45,078 bases of DNA from Alphaproteobacteria bacterium (GTDB lineage Bacteria > Pseudomonadota > Alphaproteobacteria > Rs-D84), in assembly GCA_024402815.1 (NCBI GenBank), contig JAKSTB010000002.1, forward strand, positions 1 through 45,078, read 5' to 3'. The position numbers and the translations under genes were made by a program. Of the stretch, positions 16,700 through 44,986 are shown in pieces (the stretch's first letter is position 1; each line of letters starts with the position of its first letter). The notes under the pieces are model-generated. The model saw only the letters and a program-made list of their open reading frames with translations, was not told the origin of the DNA and made no database searches.

Positions 16700-16770
<71 letters not shown>

Positions 16771-16776
<6 letters not shown>

Positions 16777-37689: not shown

Positions 37690-37726
37690 CACATTACGGC
37701 GTGTTTGTTTTGTTTAAAATATAAAA

Positions 37727-37756
37727 AAGGCCGTATATATGCGGCCTTGCTTTTTT
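37727..37756 (+). terminator. intrinsic terminator between rplT and pheS (possible attenuator)
   Basis: AAGGCCG (37727-37733) / CGGCCTT (37742-37748), 8-nt loop, then GCTTTTTT. Confidence 0.7.
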
Positions 37757-37774
37757 ATAAGATGGGGAAAACAA

Positions 37775-38725
37775 ATGAAAGATAAAATTAAAAATGTAAA
37801 TTCTTTGGAAGATTTGCAAAGTTTATACACCGAAACATTCGGTAAAAATGGGACTATGACCCAAAAGTTAAAAAATATGGCGAATTTATCCAACGAAGAA
37901 CGTGCAGTTGTGAACACAGAAAACACCGAATTGCGCCAATTGTTCAAAGAAAAACAGGCGGAATTGGAATTGGCGGTGTTGAATTCTAAATTGGCAACAG
38001 AATATGTTGATGTAACATTGGACACAGAACCAAAAAATCGCGGAACGATACATCCTGTGACTCAATCATTCAAAGAAGCTATCGCTATATTTGAATCTAT
38101 GGGATATACACTGATGACGGGGCCAGAAATCGAAGATGATTGGCATAATTTTACTGCGTTGAATACGCCTGAATATCACCCTGCCCGCGATATGCAAGAT
38201 TCGTTCTTTTTGGAAAACGGAAATGTTATGCGTACACAAACCAGCGCGATTCAAATTCGTGCTATGGAAAAATTAGGCGCACCAATCAAGATATTTGCAT
38301 TGGGTAATTGTTACCGCAAAGAATTAGACGCGACCCATTCTGCCATGTTTGATCAATTGGAAGGGTTGTGTATAGATACAGTTGAAAAGAATATAAATTT
38401 ATCTGATTTGTTGGGAACCATGCGTGTGTTTGCTTCTAAATTCTTTGGCAAAGAAGTTGATTTACGTATTCGTCCTTCATACTTCCCTTTCACAGAACCA
38501 TCTATTGAAATAGATATGAAATGGGGTGATAAGTGGTTGGAATTATTATGTGGCGGTATGGTTCATCCAAATGTTTTGCGTAACTGTGGTATAGATCCTG
38601 ATAAATACCAAGGTTTTGCATTCGGTTTTGGTTGGGACAGATTAGTAATGTTGAAATATGGGCTGAACGATATTCGTGCCTTTACAGACAGCGATATTCG
38701 TTGGTTGAAAAATAGTGGTTTTTAA
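37775..38725 (+). CDS. pheS: phenylalanine--tRNA ligase alpha subunit
   Basis: FPFTEPS motif and class II signature. ATG 37775 has a GGGGA SD. The track start at 37739 lies inside the terminator hairpin. Confidence 0.93.
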   Translation: MKDKIKNVNSLEDLQSLYTETFGKNGTMTQKLKNMANLSNEERAVVNTENTELRQLFKEKQAELELAVLNSKLATEYVDVTLDTEPKNRGTIHPVTQSFKEAIAIFESMGYTLMTGPEIEDDWHNFTALNTPEYHPARDMQDSFFLENGNVMRTQTSAIQIRAMEKLGAPIKIFALGNCYRKELDATHSAMFDQLEGLCIDTVEKNINLSDLLGTMRVFASKFFGKEVDLRIRPSYFPFTEPSIEIDMKWGDKWLELLCGGMVHPNVLRNCGIDPDKYQGFAFGFGWDRLVMLKYGLNDIRAFTDSDIRWLKNSGF

Positions 38726-38740: not shown

Positions 38741-41062
38741 ATGAAATGGTCTTATGAATGGTTAAAAGAATATTTAGATACAGATTTAACCCCAGAGCAA
38801 ATTGCTGATAAATTAACAGCTGTGGGATTGGAAGTTGAAGATTTATCAACACCAATTTTGCCAATCGCTGCAAAAATTACGGAATGTGTTCCACATCCAA
38901 ACAGTGATCATTTACATGTATTGCAAGTTGATGATGGCACAGGCAAATTGCGTCAGGTCGTATGCGGTGCACCAAATGCGCGCGTTGGATTGGTATCTGC
39001 GTTGGCTTTGCCAGGGTGCATAATCGGTGACTTTGTGATTCAACCTGGTAACTTACGCGGTGTTGATTCAAACGGTATGATGTGCAGTGCTGCCGAAATG
39101 GGAATTGGTGATGATGATGCCGGTATTATCGAATTAGATGAAAAACAAGAAAAAATCGGCGAACCTATATCCGTTATGCGTAACAGTGCATCTGCAGTAT
39201 TGGAAACATCTATTACACCAAATCGCCCTGATTATTTATCTGTACGTGGTATTGCGTTGGATTTAAGTGCGGCTGGGGCTGGTAAATATATCGCAGAAGA
39301 TATCAAAGAATTGGAATTAAAGTCTGGTTCTCGCAAAGTGAATTTGGTTGCCGAAAAGGCATGTCCAACATATCGCTTTTGTGAAATACACGGAATTAAA
39401 AATGTTCCGTCCTCTGATAAAATACAAAATCGTTTACGCAGTGCAGATATAAACCCAAAAAATACTGCAATTGATGCTACGAATTATATATGTTATGATT
39501 TGGCGCAACCTATGCATTGTTTTGATGCAGATAAAATCGTTGGCGATATAACTGTGCGTATGGCGAAAGATGGCGAAACATTTACAGACCTGTTCGGCAA
39601 AGAACATGTGTTATGTGAAAAAGATTTGGTTATAACCGATGATGCCGGTATATTGGCTTTGGCTGGTGTTGTTGGTGGGGAACGCGGTTCAACTACAGAC
39701 GAAACCAAAAATATTATATTGGAATCTGCATATTTTGATCCTGTGTTTATTCGTAAATCTTCGAAACGTCATGGGATATCAACAGATTCTTCATACAGAT
39801 ATGAACGTGGTATTAACCCAGATGGCACAGCCAAAGCTTTGGCGTTGGCTGCTAAAATCATCATGGATCAATGTGGTGGTGAAATTGTAAATGTTTCTGT
39901 GGCGGGACGTGAAAAATATGTTCCGGAAACAGTTGTATACAATCCATCATATTTCCAACAAAAAACAGGTTTAACTTTGGATGCAGATACACAACGTGAA
40001 ATACTTGAAAGATTGCAATTCAAAGTTGCCAATAACAAAAAAGGTGATTGGGTTATAACACCAAACCCACAACGTGTAGATGTTGTGATTCCTGAAAATA
40101 TTGTTTCAGATTTAATCCGTATCTATGGCTATGACAAGGTTGGGTTGAATTATGTCCCTGAAAAAACAGTTCCTGCGGAACATAATGATTTGAATATACC
40201 TTTGAAGGAAAAATTAGCAAATCTGGGTTTGAACGAAGCTATTACTTTTGGTTTTGGTAATTCCAAAGTTGAACAATTGGTAACTGATAAACCTTTAATC
40301 AAAGTTGCAAACCCAATTATTGTTGATTTAGATACTGCAAGAAATAATTTGTTGGGAAATTTATTGATTGCAGTGGCAAATAATGAAAAACGTGGTTTTT
40401 CTGATTTGAATATGTTTGAAATGGGTGCAGTGTTTGATGGTGATAAACCTGGTGAACAATATACATCTATTTGTATAGTTCGCACCGGGAATACATCGCC
40501 AAAGCATTGGCAAAAACGCAATCGCCCTGTTGATGTATTCGATGTAAAATCAGATATTGTGTCTTTGTTGGGTTCACAAAAATTCAATATAGATACCAAG
40601 AATGCGCCACGTTGGGCACACCCATACAGATACGGTGCAATTACCCAGGGACCACGTGTCATTGGACAATTTGGTGAATTACATCCATCTGTCGCAAAAC
40701 AATTACACATAAAAACACCTGTGATGATTGGTTTGATTGACAACATAGAAAATTTACCAAAAAATCCGAAACACAAAAAAATACCTGTAACCGATTTTAT
40801 GCCAATCACACGTGATTTTGCTTTTGTAGTTGATGCAAAATATGAATCACAAAAAATGATTGCGACAGCACTGGGGGCAGATTCACACATATCAAATGCG
40901 GTTATATTTGATTCATTTGATATGGAAAACGGATTAAAATCTGTTGCATTTACAATAACGATTTATCCTGAACAAAACATGTTAGATACAGATTTGTTAA
41001 AGATTCAAGAAAACGTTATCAGAAATGTTGAATCAAAATGTGGTGCTAAATTGCGTGCATAA
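38741..41062 (+). CDS. pheT: phenylalanine--tRNA ligase beta subunit
   Basis: 773 aa with N-terminal tRNA-binding domain, B3/4, B5 and C-terminal FDX-ACB-like region. Follows pheS. Confidence 0.93.
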   Translation: MKWSYEWLKEYLDTDLTPEQIADKLTAVGLEVEDLSTPILPIAAKITECVPHPNSDHLHVLQVDDGTGKLRQVVCGAPNARVGLVSALALPGCIIGDFVIQPGNLRGVDSNGMMCSAAEMGIGDDDAGIIELDEKQEKIGEPISVMRNSASAVLETSITPNRPDYLSVRGIALDLSAAGAGKYIAEDIKELELKSGSRKVNLVAEKACPTYRFCEIHGIKNVPSSDKIQNRLRSADINPKNTAIDATNYICYDLAQPMHCFDADKIVGDITVRMAKDGETFTDLFGKEHVLCEKDLVITDDAGILALAGVVGGERGSTTDETKNIILESAYFDPVFIRKSSKRHGISTDSSYRYERGINPDGTAKALALAAKIIMDQCGGEIVNVSVAGREKYVPETVVYNPSYFQQKTGLTLDADTQREILERLQFKVANNKKGDWVITPNPQRVDVVIPENIVSDLIRIYGYDKVGLNYVPEKTVPAEHNDLNIPLKEKLANLGLNEAITFGFGNSKVEQLVTDKPLIKVANPIIVDLDTARNNLLGNLLIAVANNEKRGFSDLNMFEMGAVFDGDKPGEQYTSICIVRTGNTSPKHWQKRNRPVDVFDVKSDIVSLLGSQKFNIDTKNAPRWAHPYRYGAITQGPRVIGQFGELHPSVAKQLHIKTPVMIGLIDNIENLPKNPKHKKIPVTDFMPITRDFAFVVDAKYESQKMIATALGADSHISNAVIFDSFDMENGLKSVAFTITIYPEQNMLDTDLLKIQENVIRNVESKCGAKLRA

Positions 41063-41076
41063 AATCGCAATAAATA

Positions 41077-41107
41077 AAAGACCGGTGTGAAAAACACCGG
41101 TTTTTTT
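41077..41107 (+). terminator. intrinsic terminator after pheT
   Basis: ACCGGTGT / ACACCGGT stem with 5-nt loop and a T7 run. Confidence 0.8.
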
Positions 41108-41127
41108 ATAAAATTTATATATAAAAC

Positions 41128-41156
41128 TTGATTTTCATAAAAATTCATTGTATAAA
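41128..41156 (+). promoter_or_regulatory. promoter of the ileS leader
   Basis: TTGATT (41128-41133), 17-nt spacer, TATAAA (41151-41156). Confidence 0.5.
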
Positions 41157-41163
41157 TAGTGTC

Positions 41164-41196
41164 ATGAAACAAAAAACAATAATTATCATTAAATAA
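41164..41196 (+). CDS. putative ileS leader peptide MKQKTIIIIK
   Basis: 10-codon ORF with four consecutive Ile codons (ATA ATT ATC ATT). The ATG is about 8 nt after the -10 element (leaderless-type) and there is no SD. Confidence 0.45.
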   Translation: MKQKTIIIIK

Positions 41197-41200
41197 AAGG

Positions 41201-41244
41201 CACTGCGCTTTGGCGGTGGCTGGGGCGCATAAAGCGCCCTTTTT
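41201..41244 (+). promoter_or_regulatory. attenuator-like alternative structures ending in an intrinsic terminator
   Basis: Terminator GGGCGC (41223-41228) / GCGCCC (41234-41239) plus TTTTT. Competing helix TGCGCTTT (41204-41211) / GGGGCGCA (41222-41229). Third helix 41201-41206 / 41213-41218. Confidence 0.55.
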
Positions 41245-41274
41245 CAATGCAAATAAAACAAAGGTAGAAAAACA

Positions 41275-44200
41275 ATGGCATATCCAAAAACAGAAACCAA
41301 AGCGAATTTTTCAGAATTAGAAAATAAAATCTTAGAATTTTGGCGTGATGATGACACATTTCATAAATCATTGAATAAAACAAAATTGGGACATCCGTTT
41401 ACTTTCTATGATGGTCCACCGTTTGCAAATGGTTTGCCACATTGGGGACATCTGGGCGTATCAGCGGTTAAAGATATGGTCTGTAGATTTAATACTATGC
41501 GTGGCCGTTATGTAGAGCGCGCGTTGGGTTGGGATTGTCATGGTCTGCCAGCTGAAGCGTCTGTTGAAAAGAAGCAAGGTCGTACCGCTAAAGATATTGT
41601 CGCAACTGATGGAATTGCAGCATTTTGTGATATGTGCCACGATGATGTTATCACATACACAAATGAATGGGTACGTTTCATAGAACGTGTGGGACGTTGG
41701 GTTGATGGTGGTAAAGATTTGGGCTATCGCACAATGGATACCAATTATATGGAATCTGTTATCTGGGCTTTGAAAGAATTATATAATCGTGGTTTGTTAT
41801 ACAAAGATTTCAAAGTAAATCCATATGATTGGAAACTTGGCACTGTCTTATCAAACAGCGAAGCGTCATCTGAATATCAGGATATTATTGATGATACAGT
41901 CACAGTTTGGTTTGAACTGGAAAATGGCGATCGTGCAATGGCATGGACAACAACACCATGGACACTACCTGCAAATTCAGCATTGGCTGTAAATAATAAT
42001 ATGACATATGTTCGTATGCGCCATGATGATGGTCATGTCTATGTTTTGGCAGAGTCTCGATTAAAAGCATATGAAAAAATATTTGCAAATTCTGAAAACT
42101 TAGGAACTGTAAATGGTTCTGAATTGGTTGGTCTGCATTATAAACCGATTTTTCCATATTATACAGAATTGGCAAAATCAGGTCATGGGCTGTATACAGT
42201 AATTTCTGGGGATTATGTATCGGACAGTGATGGTACTGGTATTGTTCATATTGCACCTGCATATGGTGAAGATGACTATATCGTTGCCAAAGCAATCGAT
42301 TCACAATTCCCTGTGATTTTGAATGTTGATGATTATGGCAATTTTGATAACACAGTCAAAGAATGGGCGGGCGAAAACATATTTGATGCAAATCCAAAAG
42401 TCATAGATTGGTTGCGTGATAATGGTATTTTGGTAAAGAAAGATCAACACAAACACAGTTATCCATTTGGTCCGCGCAGCAAAGAAAAATTGATTTATCG
42501 TGCAACTGATGCGTGGTATGTTGATGTTCCAAAAATTCGTGAAAGATTAGTTGAAATAACCAAGAACGAAACAACATGGACATCGGCTGGAAATCGGTTT
42601 TTATCTTGGATTGAAAACGCACGTCCTTGGGGAATTTCTAGAAACAGATTCTGGGGCGTACCATTACCGCTTTGGGAAAAAGATGGTGAATATAAAATCT
42701 TTGGTTCTGTCGCAGAACTGGAAGAATTTTTCAATATGAAAATTGACGATCTGCATCGTCCAACATTGGATGCGTTGACACGTGATGGTTGGAAACGTAT
42801 ACCTGATGTTCTGGATTGTTGGTTTGAATCTGGGTCTATGCCATTTGCATCATTGCATTACCCGTTTGAAAACAAGGATATTTTTGAAAAAACTTTCCCG
42901 GCTGATTACATCATAGAAGGCCAAGATCAAACGCGTGGATGGTTTTATCATTTGATGATAATGGCAGTCGCGCTATTTGATAAACCTGCGTTTCGTGTAG
43001 TATCGGCAAACGGTATGGTCGTTGATGAAAATAAACGCAAATTTTCAAAATCGTTGGGAAATTTTGTTAATCCGGATCAGCAACTTGAAACATATGGTGC
43101 AGATGCTATCCGTCTGTTTATCTTGGGTAGTAATTTTATGAAGGCTGAACCGGTGCCTGTTGATAAAGAAGGTGTGGTCTTTAATGACACAATTAAAACA
43201 ATTTTAACACCGCTTTGGAACGCATATCATTTCTTTACTTTGTATGCTAATGCGTCTGATATCATAGTATCAAAAGAGCCGAATTTAGATAATGTTTTGG
43301 ATAAATACATAATATCTGAATTGAACGATTTGATAAAAACGACTACATCTGCTTTGAATGATTATAAGCCAGATATCGCAGTTAAAGAATTTGCAAGATT
43401 TTTGGATATATTGAATAACTGGTACATACGTCGTAACAGAACAAGATTTTGGGACGAAGATATGGAAGCATTCGAAACATTACATTATGTGTTAACTACA
43501 TTCTGTAAATGTTTGGCGCCATTTGCACCATTTATCGCTGAATATATATTCAAGAATTTAACAGGCGAAGAATCTGTGCATTTACAAGATTGGCCAACAG
43601 CAACAGATGTTGATGAAAAAATCGTAAACGACATGCGTCGTGTTCAATCAATCGTGTCTGTGGGTAAACAATTACGTGAACAATATAAATTGCGTAATCG
43701 TTTGCCTTTGGCTGATGTTACAATCGCAGGTGTTGATATGCGCGAATACGGCGACATCATCAAAGATGAATTAAATGTCAAAGCTGTTAAATTCATCGAA
43801 AATATAAATGATGTGGCTGATTCATTTGTATATTTGGTTACACCAAAAATCGGTGCACGTTTGGGTGGTGCTTTGAAAGACATTATCCCAATGGTAAAAC
43901 ATGGTGATTATAAAATCGAAAATGATAAATTGGTCGTTGGTGAATATGTTTTGAACAGCGACGAATTTGAAAATCGTTTAACCGTCAAAGATGGTGTGTC
44001 GGGTGCAACATTACCAGACAACACAGCGGTCGTTGTATTGAATACAGAATTGAACGCTGAATTACAAGAAGAAGGTTTGGTAAATGATGCGTTGCGTTTC
44101 ATCCAAGATTCACGCAAAGCGGCAAATCTGGATGTGTCAGACAGAATAAAATTGGCATATACCGCTGATGTTGCCCTGCACAATGCGATAGAAGCACACA

Positions 44201-44319
44201 AAAAACGCATAATGCATGATGCGTTGATAACTGAAATGACATTTGGTGATGCAAATCAATTCAGTGATAAAATCGAAGAATACAATTTGTCTATCAACAT
44301 TGAAAAAGCAAATGCGTAA
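41275..44319 (+). CDS. ileS: isoleucine--tRNA ligase (type 2)
   Basis: HIGH-type PHWGH, KMSKS-type KFSKS, 1014 aa with CP1 editing domain. Confidence 0.95.
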   Translation: MAYPKTETKANFSELENKILEFWRDDDTFHKSLNKTKLGHPFTFYDGPPFANGLPHWGHLGVSAVKDMVCRFNTMRGRYVERALGWDCHGLPAEASVEKKQGRTAKDIVATDGIAAFCDMCHDDVITYTNEWVRFIERVGRWVDGGKDLGYRTMDTNYMESVIWALKELYNRGLLYKDFKVNPYDWKLGTVLSNSEASSEYQDIIDDTVTVWFELENGDRAMAWTTTPWTLPANSALAVNNNMTYVRMRHDDGHVYVLAESRLKAYEKIFANSENLGTVNGSELVGLHYKPIFPYYTELAKSGHGLYTVISGDYVSDSDGTGIVHIAPAYGEDDYIVAKAIDSQFPVILNVDDYGNFDNTVKEWAGENIFDANPKVIDWLRDNGILVKKDQHKHSYPFGPRSKEKLIYRATDAWYVDVPKIRERLVEITKNETTWTSAGNRFLSWIENARPWGISRNRFWGVPLPLWEKDGEYKIFGSVAELEEFFNMKIDDLHRPTLDALTRDGWKRIPDVLDCWFESGSMPFASLHYPFENKDIFEKTFPADYIIEGQDQTRGWFYHLMIMAVALFDKPAFRVVSANGMVVDENKRKFSKSLGNFVNPDQQLETYGADAIRLFILGSNFMKAEPVPVDKEGVVFNDTIKTILTPLWNAYHFFTLYANASDIIVSKEPNLDNVLDKYIISELNDLIKTTTSALNDYKPDIAVKEFARFLDILNNWYIRRNRTRFWDEDMEAFETLHYVLTTFCKCLAPFAPFIAEYIFKNLTGEESVHLQDWPTATDVDEKIVNDMRRVQSIVSVGKQLREQYKLRNRLPLADVTIAGVDMREYGDIIKDELNVKAVKFIENINDVADSFVYLVTPKIGARLGGALKDIIPMVKHGDYKIENDKLVVGEYVLNSDEFENRLTVKDGVSGATLPDNTAVVVLNTELNAELQEEGLVNDALRFIQDSRKAANLDVSDRIKLAYTADVALHNAIEAHKKRIMHDALITEMTFGDANQFSDKIEEYNLSINIEKANA

Positions 44320-44986
44320 ACAAAAAATAATTCTTAGTCCGGATATTTATTTTGAAAATGTTTGTCCAACATTGAATATGAATATCCGGTCTGAATTATA
44401 TTCCACAAATGAATTTACATTTGCGGTGGCTGTGATTTTATCAGCCCAGGCAACTGATAAAAAAGTTAATGAAGTTACCCCAGAATTATTCCGTATAGCA
44501 CCAACGCCCGATAAAATGCTGAAGTTGGGGATTGACGGATTAAAACAACATATCAAAGTAATTTCTTTCTTTAATAACAAGGCGAAAAACATAATTTTAT
44601 TGTCACAACAATTGCAAGATAAAAACAGCGACGATATAAATTATAAATTCCCAACAAAATATCACGACAGAAATGAATTAATGAAATTAGCAGGGGTCGG
44701 TCAAAAAACCGCCAATGTGGTATCTAATGTTTTGTGGGGTGCGTCAAACATAGGTGTGGATACTCACGTTTTCCGTCTGTCGCATCGATTTGGTTGGTGT
44801 GATGAAAACGATAATACACCCGAAAAAGTAGAAACAAAATTATTGAAAATTATTCCACAAAAATACCATTCAATTACAAATCATGTAATGGTTTTGCATG
44901 GTCGTTATACATGCAAGGCACTTCGCCCAAATTGTGTAAATTGCCCAGTTGTAAAATGGTGTAATTCTAAAGATAAAAGACAATAA
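44312..44986 (+). CDS. nth: endonuclease III
   Basis: HhH LAGVGQKTANVV, catalytic D in GVDTHVFR, Fe-S ligands C-x6-C-x2-C-x5-C. The ATG overlaps the ileS end by 8 nt. Confidence 0.93.
   Translation: MRKQKIILSPDIYFENVCPTLNMNIRSELYSTNEFTFAVAVILSAQATDKKVNEVTPELFRIAPTPDKMLKLGIDGLKQHIKVISFFNNKAKNIILLSQQLQDKNSDDINYKFPTKYHDRNELMKLAGVGQKTANVVSNVLWGASNIGVDTHVFRLSHRFGWCDENDNTPEKVETKLLKIIPQKYHSITNHVMVLHGRYTCKALRPNCVNCPVVKWCNSKDKRQ

Follow-up and report, generated by a model that had tools for sequence, protein, structure and literature searches.

Control of an aminoacyl-tRNA synthetase by a leader peptide has a proteobacterial precedent in the pheST attenuator (PMC1262725), where, in E. coli, the leader pheM places cognate codons ahead of alternative hairpins and an intrinsic terminator. 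In the trp attenuator the hairpins pair as 1:2, 2:3 and 3:4, and termination is the default when the leader is not translated. Runs of Ile codons in the leader peptides ilvL, ivbL and thrL sense charged tRNA-Ile by ribosome stalling, and attenuation at an ilv leader has been described in Caulobacter (PMC4117421). The ileS gene itself is governed by T-boxes in Firmicutes and, at the level of translation, in Actinobacteria; there too the signal is tRNA-Ile charging, and the outcome is a choice between terminator and antiterminator or sequestrator structures (PMC1262725). Here we describe an element directly upstream of ileS in a 45,078-nucleotide stretch of DNA (hereafter the window) from an Alphaproteobacteria bacterium (GenBank assembly GCA_024402815.1, contig JAKSTB010000002.1, positions 1 to 45,078, forward strand). 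It consists of a ten-codon open reading frame (ORF) with four consecutive Ile codons, a first hairpin (H1), an antiterminator hairpin and an intrinsic terminator; the three hairpins overlap pairwise in the classical 1:2, 2:3, 3:4 arrangement.

The element differs from each of these systems. The pheM leader is a longer, gammaproteobacterial one that uses Phe codons and has a Shine-Dalgarno sequence, and its sequence is unrelated. The trp attenuator controls a biosynthetic operon and carries its control codons inside region 1, whereas in the ileS leader the Ile codons, which are AU-only, all precede H1, there is far less positional tolerance, and the whole leader is shorter, at ~82 nt to the end of the terminator. 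The ilvL, ivbL and thrL leaders are multivalent (Ile plus Val, Leu or Thr), serve the control of biosynthesis and show no match in sequence or structure. T-boxes, for their part, bind uncharged tRNA directly, without translation. Covariance models from Rfam found nothing on the element, whether at gathering threshold across the whole window or at E ≤ 10 in 41050-41330, and the T-box model was likewise without a match in both searches. The Thr, Trp, His, Leu and Phe leader families of Rfam gave no match either: the only signal, a sub-threshold one to Thr_leader (18 bits against a gathering score of 55), sits on the pheT terminator (41050-41110), off the element.

In the literature that we searched there was no description of an Ile-codon attenuator of ileS, and the element is a hitherto undescribed example among leader-peptide attenuators, here before ileS. 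An earlier note on this DNA had likewise known of no leader-peptide attenuator for this gene. That statement holds for the mechanism; as to the leader itself, an 'ileS leader CDS' (CCNA_03934) had already been named in Caulobacter crescentus, as a small translated ORF 5' of ileS seen by ribosome profiling (PMC4117421). In the portions of that source covered here, text and supplements, this ORF served only as a negative control, and its sequence, codons and mechanism do not appear; a trpS leader ORF is also named there, without description (PMC4117421). Caulobacter IleRS (2910 nt gene) is shorter than the synthetase of the window, and the two leaders are at most possible homologues.

The reading that the earlier note had proposed, an Ile-codon leader-peptide attenuator before ileS, is supported by a conserved module, by codon periodicity and by compensatory changes. 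We put at roughly 65% the probability that the element is a ribosome-mediated leader-peptide transcription attenuator that tunes ileS to the supply of charged tRNA-Ile.

A scan with the IleRS protein, keeping one genome per species, gave 78 loci at 57-89% identity, nearly all from metagenome-assembled genomes of rumen or gut origin that carry the label Candidatus Enterousia or uncultured Alphaproteobacteria. Usable upstream sequence was available for 75 of these and for 53 metagenome loci (128 in all; IleRS 57-97% identical). The complete module, that is leader ORF, alternative hairpin and terminator, was found in 124 of the 128 (73 of the 75 from genomes, 51 of the 53 from metagenomes), and the conservation of Ile run and helices that the earlier note had made a test of its reading was thus observed. 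Everywhere the plan is the same: M-x4-IIII, a purine-purine-N codon and a stop, then the alternative hairpin, then the terminator. At one further genome locus the contig stops partway through the Ile run; among the genomes only L064 (Rickettsiales) lacks the leader. The metagenome loci come from the second of two scans, with a five-protein alignment as query, which returned mainly the same clade, together with L102, L107 and L133, which carry a leader, and L103 and L117, which do not. The pooled set comprises 125 leaders (111 distinct sequences), and 71 sequences entered our structural alignment (A1).

The element occurs in one copy per locus and always 5' of ileS; across the window and 141 loci we found neither second copies nor analogous leaders before other genes. 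It stands behind at least three unrelated contexts, namely pheT, a divergent gene, or a gene for tRNA-Thr(CGT), which may point either way. Most often the upstream neighbour is tRNA-Thr(CGT), as it also is in the outgroup L063; examples are L034, L053 and L063 (+ strand) and L005 (- strand), with the tRNA gene ~100-230 nt 5' of ileS. Runs of four ATH codons are by themselves unremarkable in DNA this AT-rich (5 observed in the window, 4.0 expected), and a mini-ORF that has a residue triplet and is followed by a terminator turns up a single time in the 45 kb, both strands included. Its conservation in 124 other loci places the module far beyond chance.

The leader ORF varies among relatives in the manner of translated codons. 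The window encodes MKQKTIIIIK, with Ile at codons 6-9 exactly as the earlier note read it, and so has the short ORF enriched in cognate codons that leader-peptide attenuators carry. The peptide is 10 amino acids long in 117 of the 125 leaders and the Ile run has four codons in 119; a single codon separates the run from the stop in 123, and two codons do so in L040 and L078. Stop codons interchange (TAA 109, TGA 9, TAG 7), and residues 2-5 vary freely at fixed length. In the 71 aligned loci, the first two bases of each of the four Ile codons never change, while the third may be A, T or C. Three-base periodicity, stop interchange, the kept ATG and length, and a fixed spacing from the -10 hexamer to the ATG together argue from the sequences that the leader is translated. 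Behind the run stands, in every leader, a purine-purine-N codon (AAA 67, AGA 40, GGA 7, GAA 5, AGG 2, AAG 1, AAT 1; L040 and L078 have two codons there, the first AAA), and the residue that it specifies may be K, R, G or E. Because purine-purine-N is kept while the residue changes, the conservation points to a constraint at the level of RNA.

Reading ATA together with ATT or ATC takes both tRNA-Ile isoacceptors (GAU and lysidine-modified CAU). Every one of the 125 Ile runs has at least one ATA codon plus ATT or ATC, so both isoacceptors would be needed to translate the leader. A tRNA gene of the window at 16700-16776, anticodon CAT, is called as tRNA-Met; it could equally be the lysidine-dependent tRNA-Ile2 that reads ATA.

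The near-consensus promoter that the earlier note had placed between the pheT terminator and the ileS ATG is present (TTGATT-17-TATAAA); our consensus scan did not list it because the scan demands T as the last base of the -10 hexamer. This 'class A' type is found at 26 loci, and a second, unrelated type, TGGAAA-17-TAnnnT, at 35. With both types the nearest -10-like hexamer ends 7 nt 5' of the ATG in 38 loci and 8 nt in 9, and in 6 further loci it ends 10 nt 5' of the inner ATG of an ATGATG pair. The leader ATG lacks a Shine-Dalgarno sequence; ileS has one. Given the -10 hexamer ~7 nt before the ATG and the missing Shine-Dalgarno sequence, we predict a transcript that begins with AUG, starting at or next to A41164. 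The leaderless, Shine-Dalgarno-free mRNA suggested by the earlier note thus gains support from the same spacing in two unrelated promoter types, with the start itself a prediction. The design has precedents: the ORF of the S. meliloti attenuator trpL/rnTrpL starts at the transcript's 5' AUG (PMC10117765), as predicted for the ileS leader, and Caulobacter has many leaderless mRNAs (PMC4117421). Nine loci have the leader ATG 15-45 nt after tRNA-Thr instead, so that the leader must be co-transcribed with the tRNA and is not leaderless there; leaderlessness would therefore be frequent and not obligatory.

Beyond the leader ORF, a GC-rich segment (41198-41240) ends in T5 (41240-44), ~30 nt 5' of the ileS ATG. 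Folding this region recovered H1, antiterminator and terminator as mutually exclusive structures. Of the helices drawn in the earlier note, 41201-06/41213-18 is the core of H1 in the minimum-free-energy fold, and the GC-rich terminator with T5 returns in a terminator scan as the stem 41222-28/41234-40; the helix 41204-11 x 41222-29 is real but makes up only the outer eight pairs of an 11-bp hairpin, 41204-14 x 41219-29. When the transcript is folded as it grows, H1 alone is present with 3' ends up to 41226 (-13.2 kcal/mol), the antiterminator with 3' ends at 41228-41236 (-16.7 kcal/mol), and H1 together with the terminator from 41238 (-26.9 kcal/mol for the two). The antiterminator shares strands with both arms of H1 and with the 5' arm of the terminator (41222-28), and in truncated transcripts of relatives it forms before the terminator's 3' arm exists in 70 of 72 loci. 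All 71 aligned loci have the terminator between ORF and gene, as a hairpin of -7.9 to -15.1 kcal/mol followed by T5-T7. The ribosome-binding region and start codon of ileS are free in every predicted fold of the window; relatives carry GGAG at the distance from the ileS start at which the window has AGGTAG.

The alignment also supports the antiterminator. It is the consensus of an unguided RNAalifold prediction, and 96.8% of its alignment cells are paired, as against 35-55% when the columns of the 3' partner are slid. Its strand must pair with two partners, so that the stem is nearly invariant and covariation is sparse; what variation there is appears at column pairs such as 32/60 (UA 34, UG 22, CG 6) and 40/52 (GU 46, GC 17, AU 8, A.C never). 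Locus L068 has changed on three strands at once, G to A in the 5' strand, C to U in the shared strand and G to A in the 3' arm of the terminator, with both pairings kept; in window numbering these bases are 41205, 41228 and 41234. Locus L035 shows the G.U intermediate of this change. In L102, whose IleRS is 61% identical to that of the window, the three strands read GCGUCUU, GGGACGC and GCGUUC, and again antiterminator and terminator can both pair. Judged from these sequences, the compensatory changes in L068 and L102 support both alternative pairings. The full-length fold of the L102 leader (about 1387-1470) keeps an extended antiterminator rather than the terminator, pairing the 5' flank of H1 with the terminator's loop and 3' arm; the default state, as modelled, may thus differ between lineages.

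H1 is the first hairpin to form in the growing transcript and stands where an upstream protector (1:2) hairpin is expected. Its core is paired in 87.8% of alignment cells and its register shifts between clades, with modest covariation: native combinations of 5' flank and loop are more stable than swapped ones (-9.9 against -8.9 kcal/mol, in 39 of 52 cases; Wilcoxon p = 2e-4 in a test that ignores phylogeny). H1 would act as an anti-antiterminator, the analogue of '1:2', and is possibly also a hairpin at which RNA polymerase pauses and is synchronised with the ribosome. Locus L102 has an H1 equivalent of different sequence, and L075 has unrelated sequences for both H1 (GGCAA/UUGCC) and the antiterminator (CGCCC/GGGCG). 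The contig of L075 (CAZNTZ010000003.1) is labelled uncultured Muribaculaceae (Bacteroidota); it is probably mis-binned, because its IleRS is 61% identical to that of the window and it carries an Ile-run leader behind a class-B, alphaproteobacterial-type promoter. Locus L078 (57% identical IleRS) has an antiterminator, GUCCUGUA/UACGGGGC, and a terminator, without the H1 that the other loci have. A metagenome scan with the L078 IleRS for further leaders of this antiterminator-only kind gave zero matches.

In the mechanism that we propose, transcription would start at or next to the A of the ATG at 41164, and the ten-codon leader would be read from a leaderless mRNA. With no ribosome nearby, H1 would trap the 5' strand of the antiterminator, the terminator would form, and transcription would end ~30 nt short of ileS. 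A ribosome held at Ile codon 4 or at the purine-rich codon after it would melt the 5' arm of H1 and leave 41204-14 free; the antiterminator could then form and RNA polymerase would read into ileS. A ribosome that has reached the stop codon would also cover the first bases of the antiterminator, which would then be less stable than the terminator, and termination would follow.

We modelled the ribosome's edge as a 5' mask, counting from s = 41194, the first base of the stop codon. Without a mask the barrier from H1 to the antiterminator is ~15 kcal/mol, which makes H1 a trap and termination the default outcome. With the mask reaching s+7 to s+10 (41201-04) the barrier is 8.4-4.2 kcal/mol and the antiterminator is intact; at s+11 to s+13 the antiterminator is worth -11.3 to -5.5 kcal/mol and the barrier to the terminator is 5-3 kcal/mol. 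Across the 125 loci the terminator is lost from the masked fold in 40 loci at s+8, 50 at s+9 and 63 at s+10, and in 11 at s+12 and 3 at s+13, a profile to be read in aggregate only, since its absence from a fold is a noisy criterion for any one locus and mis-scores L078 and the window. From these results, read-through would need the ribosome's front edge to lie inside an interval of ~4 nt, 41201-04.

Which ribosome puts its edge there is a matter of f, the distance that separates its front edge from the first base in the A site: in the window the interval corresponds to f = 13-16 for Ile codon 4, 10-13 for the next codon and 7-10 for the stop codon. The literature on classical attenuation takes the ribosome to reach ~10 nt beyond the codon being read and, in trp, counts the codon after the Trp codons within the control region along with the cognate codons themselves (PMC1183508). 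Applied here, this assumption would make Ile codon 4 and the purine-rich codon part of the control region and would place a ribosome at the stop codon just outside it. The earlier note had let the stop-codon ribosome cover 41204-11. That step does not stand as drawn: such a ribosome reaches only ~41203-07, and it would favour the terminator only if its footprint extended 12 nt or more beyond the first A-site base.

Several points weigh against the attenuator model. The geometry is tight, in that H1 begins to pair at 41198, 10 nt on from the start of the last Ile codon, and the interval permissive for the antiterminator is only ~4 nt wide (41201-04). A front edge at 12-13 nt brings just Ile codon 4 and its successor into the control region and leaves Ile codons 1-3 out of reach on the upstream side; the model offers no explanation for the strict conservation of these three. 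The unwinding reach of the ribosomal helicase is reportedly ~9 nt (Takyar et al., 2005), and with that value it is the ribosome at the stop codon, rather than one stalled on Ile, that occupies the permissive interval. Only nested direct paths were used for the barrier heights, which are hence upper bounds; true covariation in the nearly invariant antiterminator stem rests on few events; the host organisms are uncultured; and the model leaves an outer helix, P0 (below), unexplained.

A rival reading keeps the attenuator and reverses the sign of control. In that alternative, only a ribosome that crosses the Ile run quickly would reach the stop codon in time to melt H1 and license the antiterminator; delay on the Ile codons would leave H1, and then the terminator, so that ileS would be on only when charged tRNA-Ile is plentiful. 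The element would be a race timer, a feed-forward or translation-capacity gate in which the output of the synthetase would act on its own gene, akin in spirit to the ribosome-proximity control of pyrBI. All four Ile codons would then act as the delay, which would explain why all four are conserved; a reach of ~9 nt puts the edge of the stop-codon ribosome at 41203 (41204 being the first base outside) and so within the permissive interval; and H1, at -13.2 kcal/mol and with a barrier of up to 15 kcal/mol, would by default be a strong trap, so that read-through would need a ribosome at the end of the ORF. Set against this is the positive feedback that it would impose on an essential enzyme, with less IleRS giving less charged tRNA and hence less ileS, and we know of no aminoacyl-tRNA synthetase under such control. 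A pure timer, moreover, needs no Ile run next to the stop, and yet the run lies one or two codons before the stop in 125 of 125 leaders (one in 123). Efficient stop contexts, mostly UAA-A after Lys or Arg, would also oppose a long-lived terminating ribosome. Locus L078, finally, has no H1, and its antiterminator lies directly behind the stop, with the 5' strand at stop+5 to +12, so that a terminating ribosome would block it at any plausible footprint and the classical sign results. We think the reversed sign unlikely. The classical sign, in which Ile limitation leads to read-through, is the likely one as modelled, because it is homeostatic for an essential enzyme, because L078 gives it at any plausible footprint, because the Ile run abuts the end of the ORF, and because the described synthetase leaders, the pheST attenuator and the T-boxes, work that way (PMC1262725).

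The helix P0 came out of the same RNAalifold prediction as an outer, AU-rich pairing of 41187-93 with 41243-49 (A1 columns 12-18 with 74-81). Its cells are paired in 95.2% of cases, against 42-78% with slid partners, and 27 cells have changed on both sides, against 0-2 in the slid controls, which is the strongest covariation signal in the alignment. On the IleRS tree, ATC as Ile codon 3 arose at least 4 times, each time opposite G. In the window itself P0 has one A.C mismatch and lies outside the minimum-free-energy fold. RNA polymerase makes the 3' strand only once it is past the termination point, which leaves P0 no part in the termination decision; P0 may close a three-way junction of P0, H1 and terminator in the read-through mRNA, or protect AU-rich ends. 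A timer to which P0 adds a second, post-decision layer, in which the leader's 3' end pairs with bases behind the terminator, seems to us a doubtful proposition, of the same low order as the reversed sign itself.

We regard it as very improbable that the ribosome is held by its nascent peptide instead of by a lack of charged tRNA. Here IIII(K/R), with or without a small molecule such as free isoleucine, would, in the manner of TnaC or SpeFL, arrest translation on the final sense codon or at the stop, and the arrested ribosome would occupy the interval permissive for the antiterminator. The most permissive ribosome is indeed one whose P site holds Ile codon 4 and whose A site holds the purine-rich codon or the stop, and the C-terminal IIII plus one residue is the sole conserved part of the peptide. 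That last residue, however, may be K, R, G or E and is conserved as RNA (purine-purine-N) rather than as an amino acid, a chain of 10 residues barely fills the exit tunnel, and we know of no arrest motif for an IIII(K/R) sequence; cognate codons before the cognate synthetase are more simply explained by sensing of tRNA.

Just as improbable is an untranslated mini-ORF, with the hairpins switched by a protein (IleRS autoregulation, for example), a tRNA or a metabolite, or forming a constitutive partial terminator: alternative structures alone could serve as a riboswitch-like element, but the Ile run has three-base periodicity, ATG, interchanging stops, length and -10-to-ATG spacing are kept, a T-box or other Rfam match is absent on the element, conserved unpaired bases are too few for a ligand pocket, and the loops, read by eye, are unlike the tRNA-Ile anticodon loop. 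Binding of IleRS to a tRNA-like operator we rejected, as no anticodon-like GAU loop is present.

The predicted parts of the locus are collected in Table 1. Upstream of the leader the gene order is rpmI-rplT-pheS-pheT (37690-37775 region of the window), matching E. coli. A Phe-codon leader before pheS was sought in the window and none was found; only a terminator-like hairpin follows rplT, at 37728-50 with T6, between rplT and pheS. The mechanically called pheS ORF, starting at 37739, passes through this hairpin, and the likely start is the ATG at 37775 behind GGGGAA. At the other end, an ORF for an HhH-GPD base-excision-repair protein (44243-44986, listed with a TTG start) overlaps the final 77 nt of ileS; its true start is probably further downstream.

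Table 1. Features of the ileS leader region in the window (coordinates of the 45,078-nt stretch).
Feature	Position	Strand	Basis or remarks
pheT, gene upstream of the leader	38741-41062		Pfam B3_4 and tRNA_synthFbeta matches
pheT terminator and T-run	41081-41101		Terminator scan
-35 hexamer TTGATT of the leader promoter	41128-41133	+	Sequence reading; motif CTTGATTTTT common to the 26 'class A' loci
-10 hexamer TATAAA	41151-41156	+	17-nt spacer from the -35 hexamer; ends 7 nt 5' of the ATG
Leader ORF MKQKTIIIIK* (10 codons and TAA)	41164-41196	+	Stop codon 41194-96
Ile control codons ATA ATT ATC ATT, consecutive	41179-41190	+	Within the leader ORF
Hairpin H1 (41198-99 and 41201-06 paired with 41213-18 and 41220-21)	41198-41221	+	-13.2 kcal/mol
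Antiterminator hairpin (41204-14 x 41219-29; 11 bp, loop GGUG 41215-18)	41204-41229	+	-16.7 kcal/mol
Intrinsic terminator (stem 41222-28 x 41234-40, loop 41229-33, U-tract 41240-44)	41222-41244	+	-13.7 kcal/mol
Tentative helix P0, 5' strand (third base of Ile codon 3, Ile codon 4, Lys codon)	41187-41193	+	RNAalifold
Tentative helix P0, 3' strand (last U-tract residues and 4 nt)	41243-41249	+	RNAalifold
ileS ribosome-binding region AGGTAG (41262-67) and start codon (41275)	41262-41277	+	Sequence
ileS, the regulated gene (1014 aa; long-form IleRS with C-terminal DUF5915)	41275-44319	+	Pfam tRNA-synt_1, Anticodon_1, DUF5915

Together, these findings suggest that a lineage without T-boxes may couple the synthesis of an essential synthetase to the charging of its own tRNA. 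What sets the element apart is its minimal leaderless design, its unusually narrow positional interval and the P0 helix. Leaderless, with 10 codons and ~82 nt to the end of the terminator, it would be about the smallest complete attenuator conceivable, and the permissive interval of ~4 nt makes it a natural and sharp test of how far the downstream RNA is masked by a ribosome that has stalled or is terminating. Leader-peptide control of synthetases is perhaps commoner than the textbook case of pheST would indicate: the Caulobacter ileS and trpS leader ORFs hint at this, as do the leader-peptide attenuators predicted before Streptomyces trpS and leuS (PMC1262725). The 125 natural variants form a seed alignment for a new RNA family, which would help to annotate the genomes of gut and rumen alphaproteobacteria, where the 33-nt ORF is never called.

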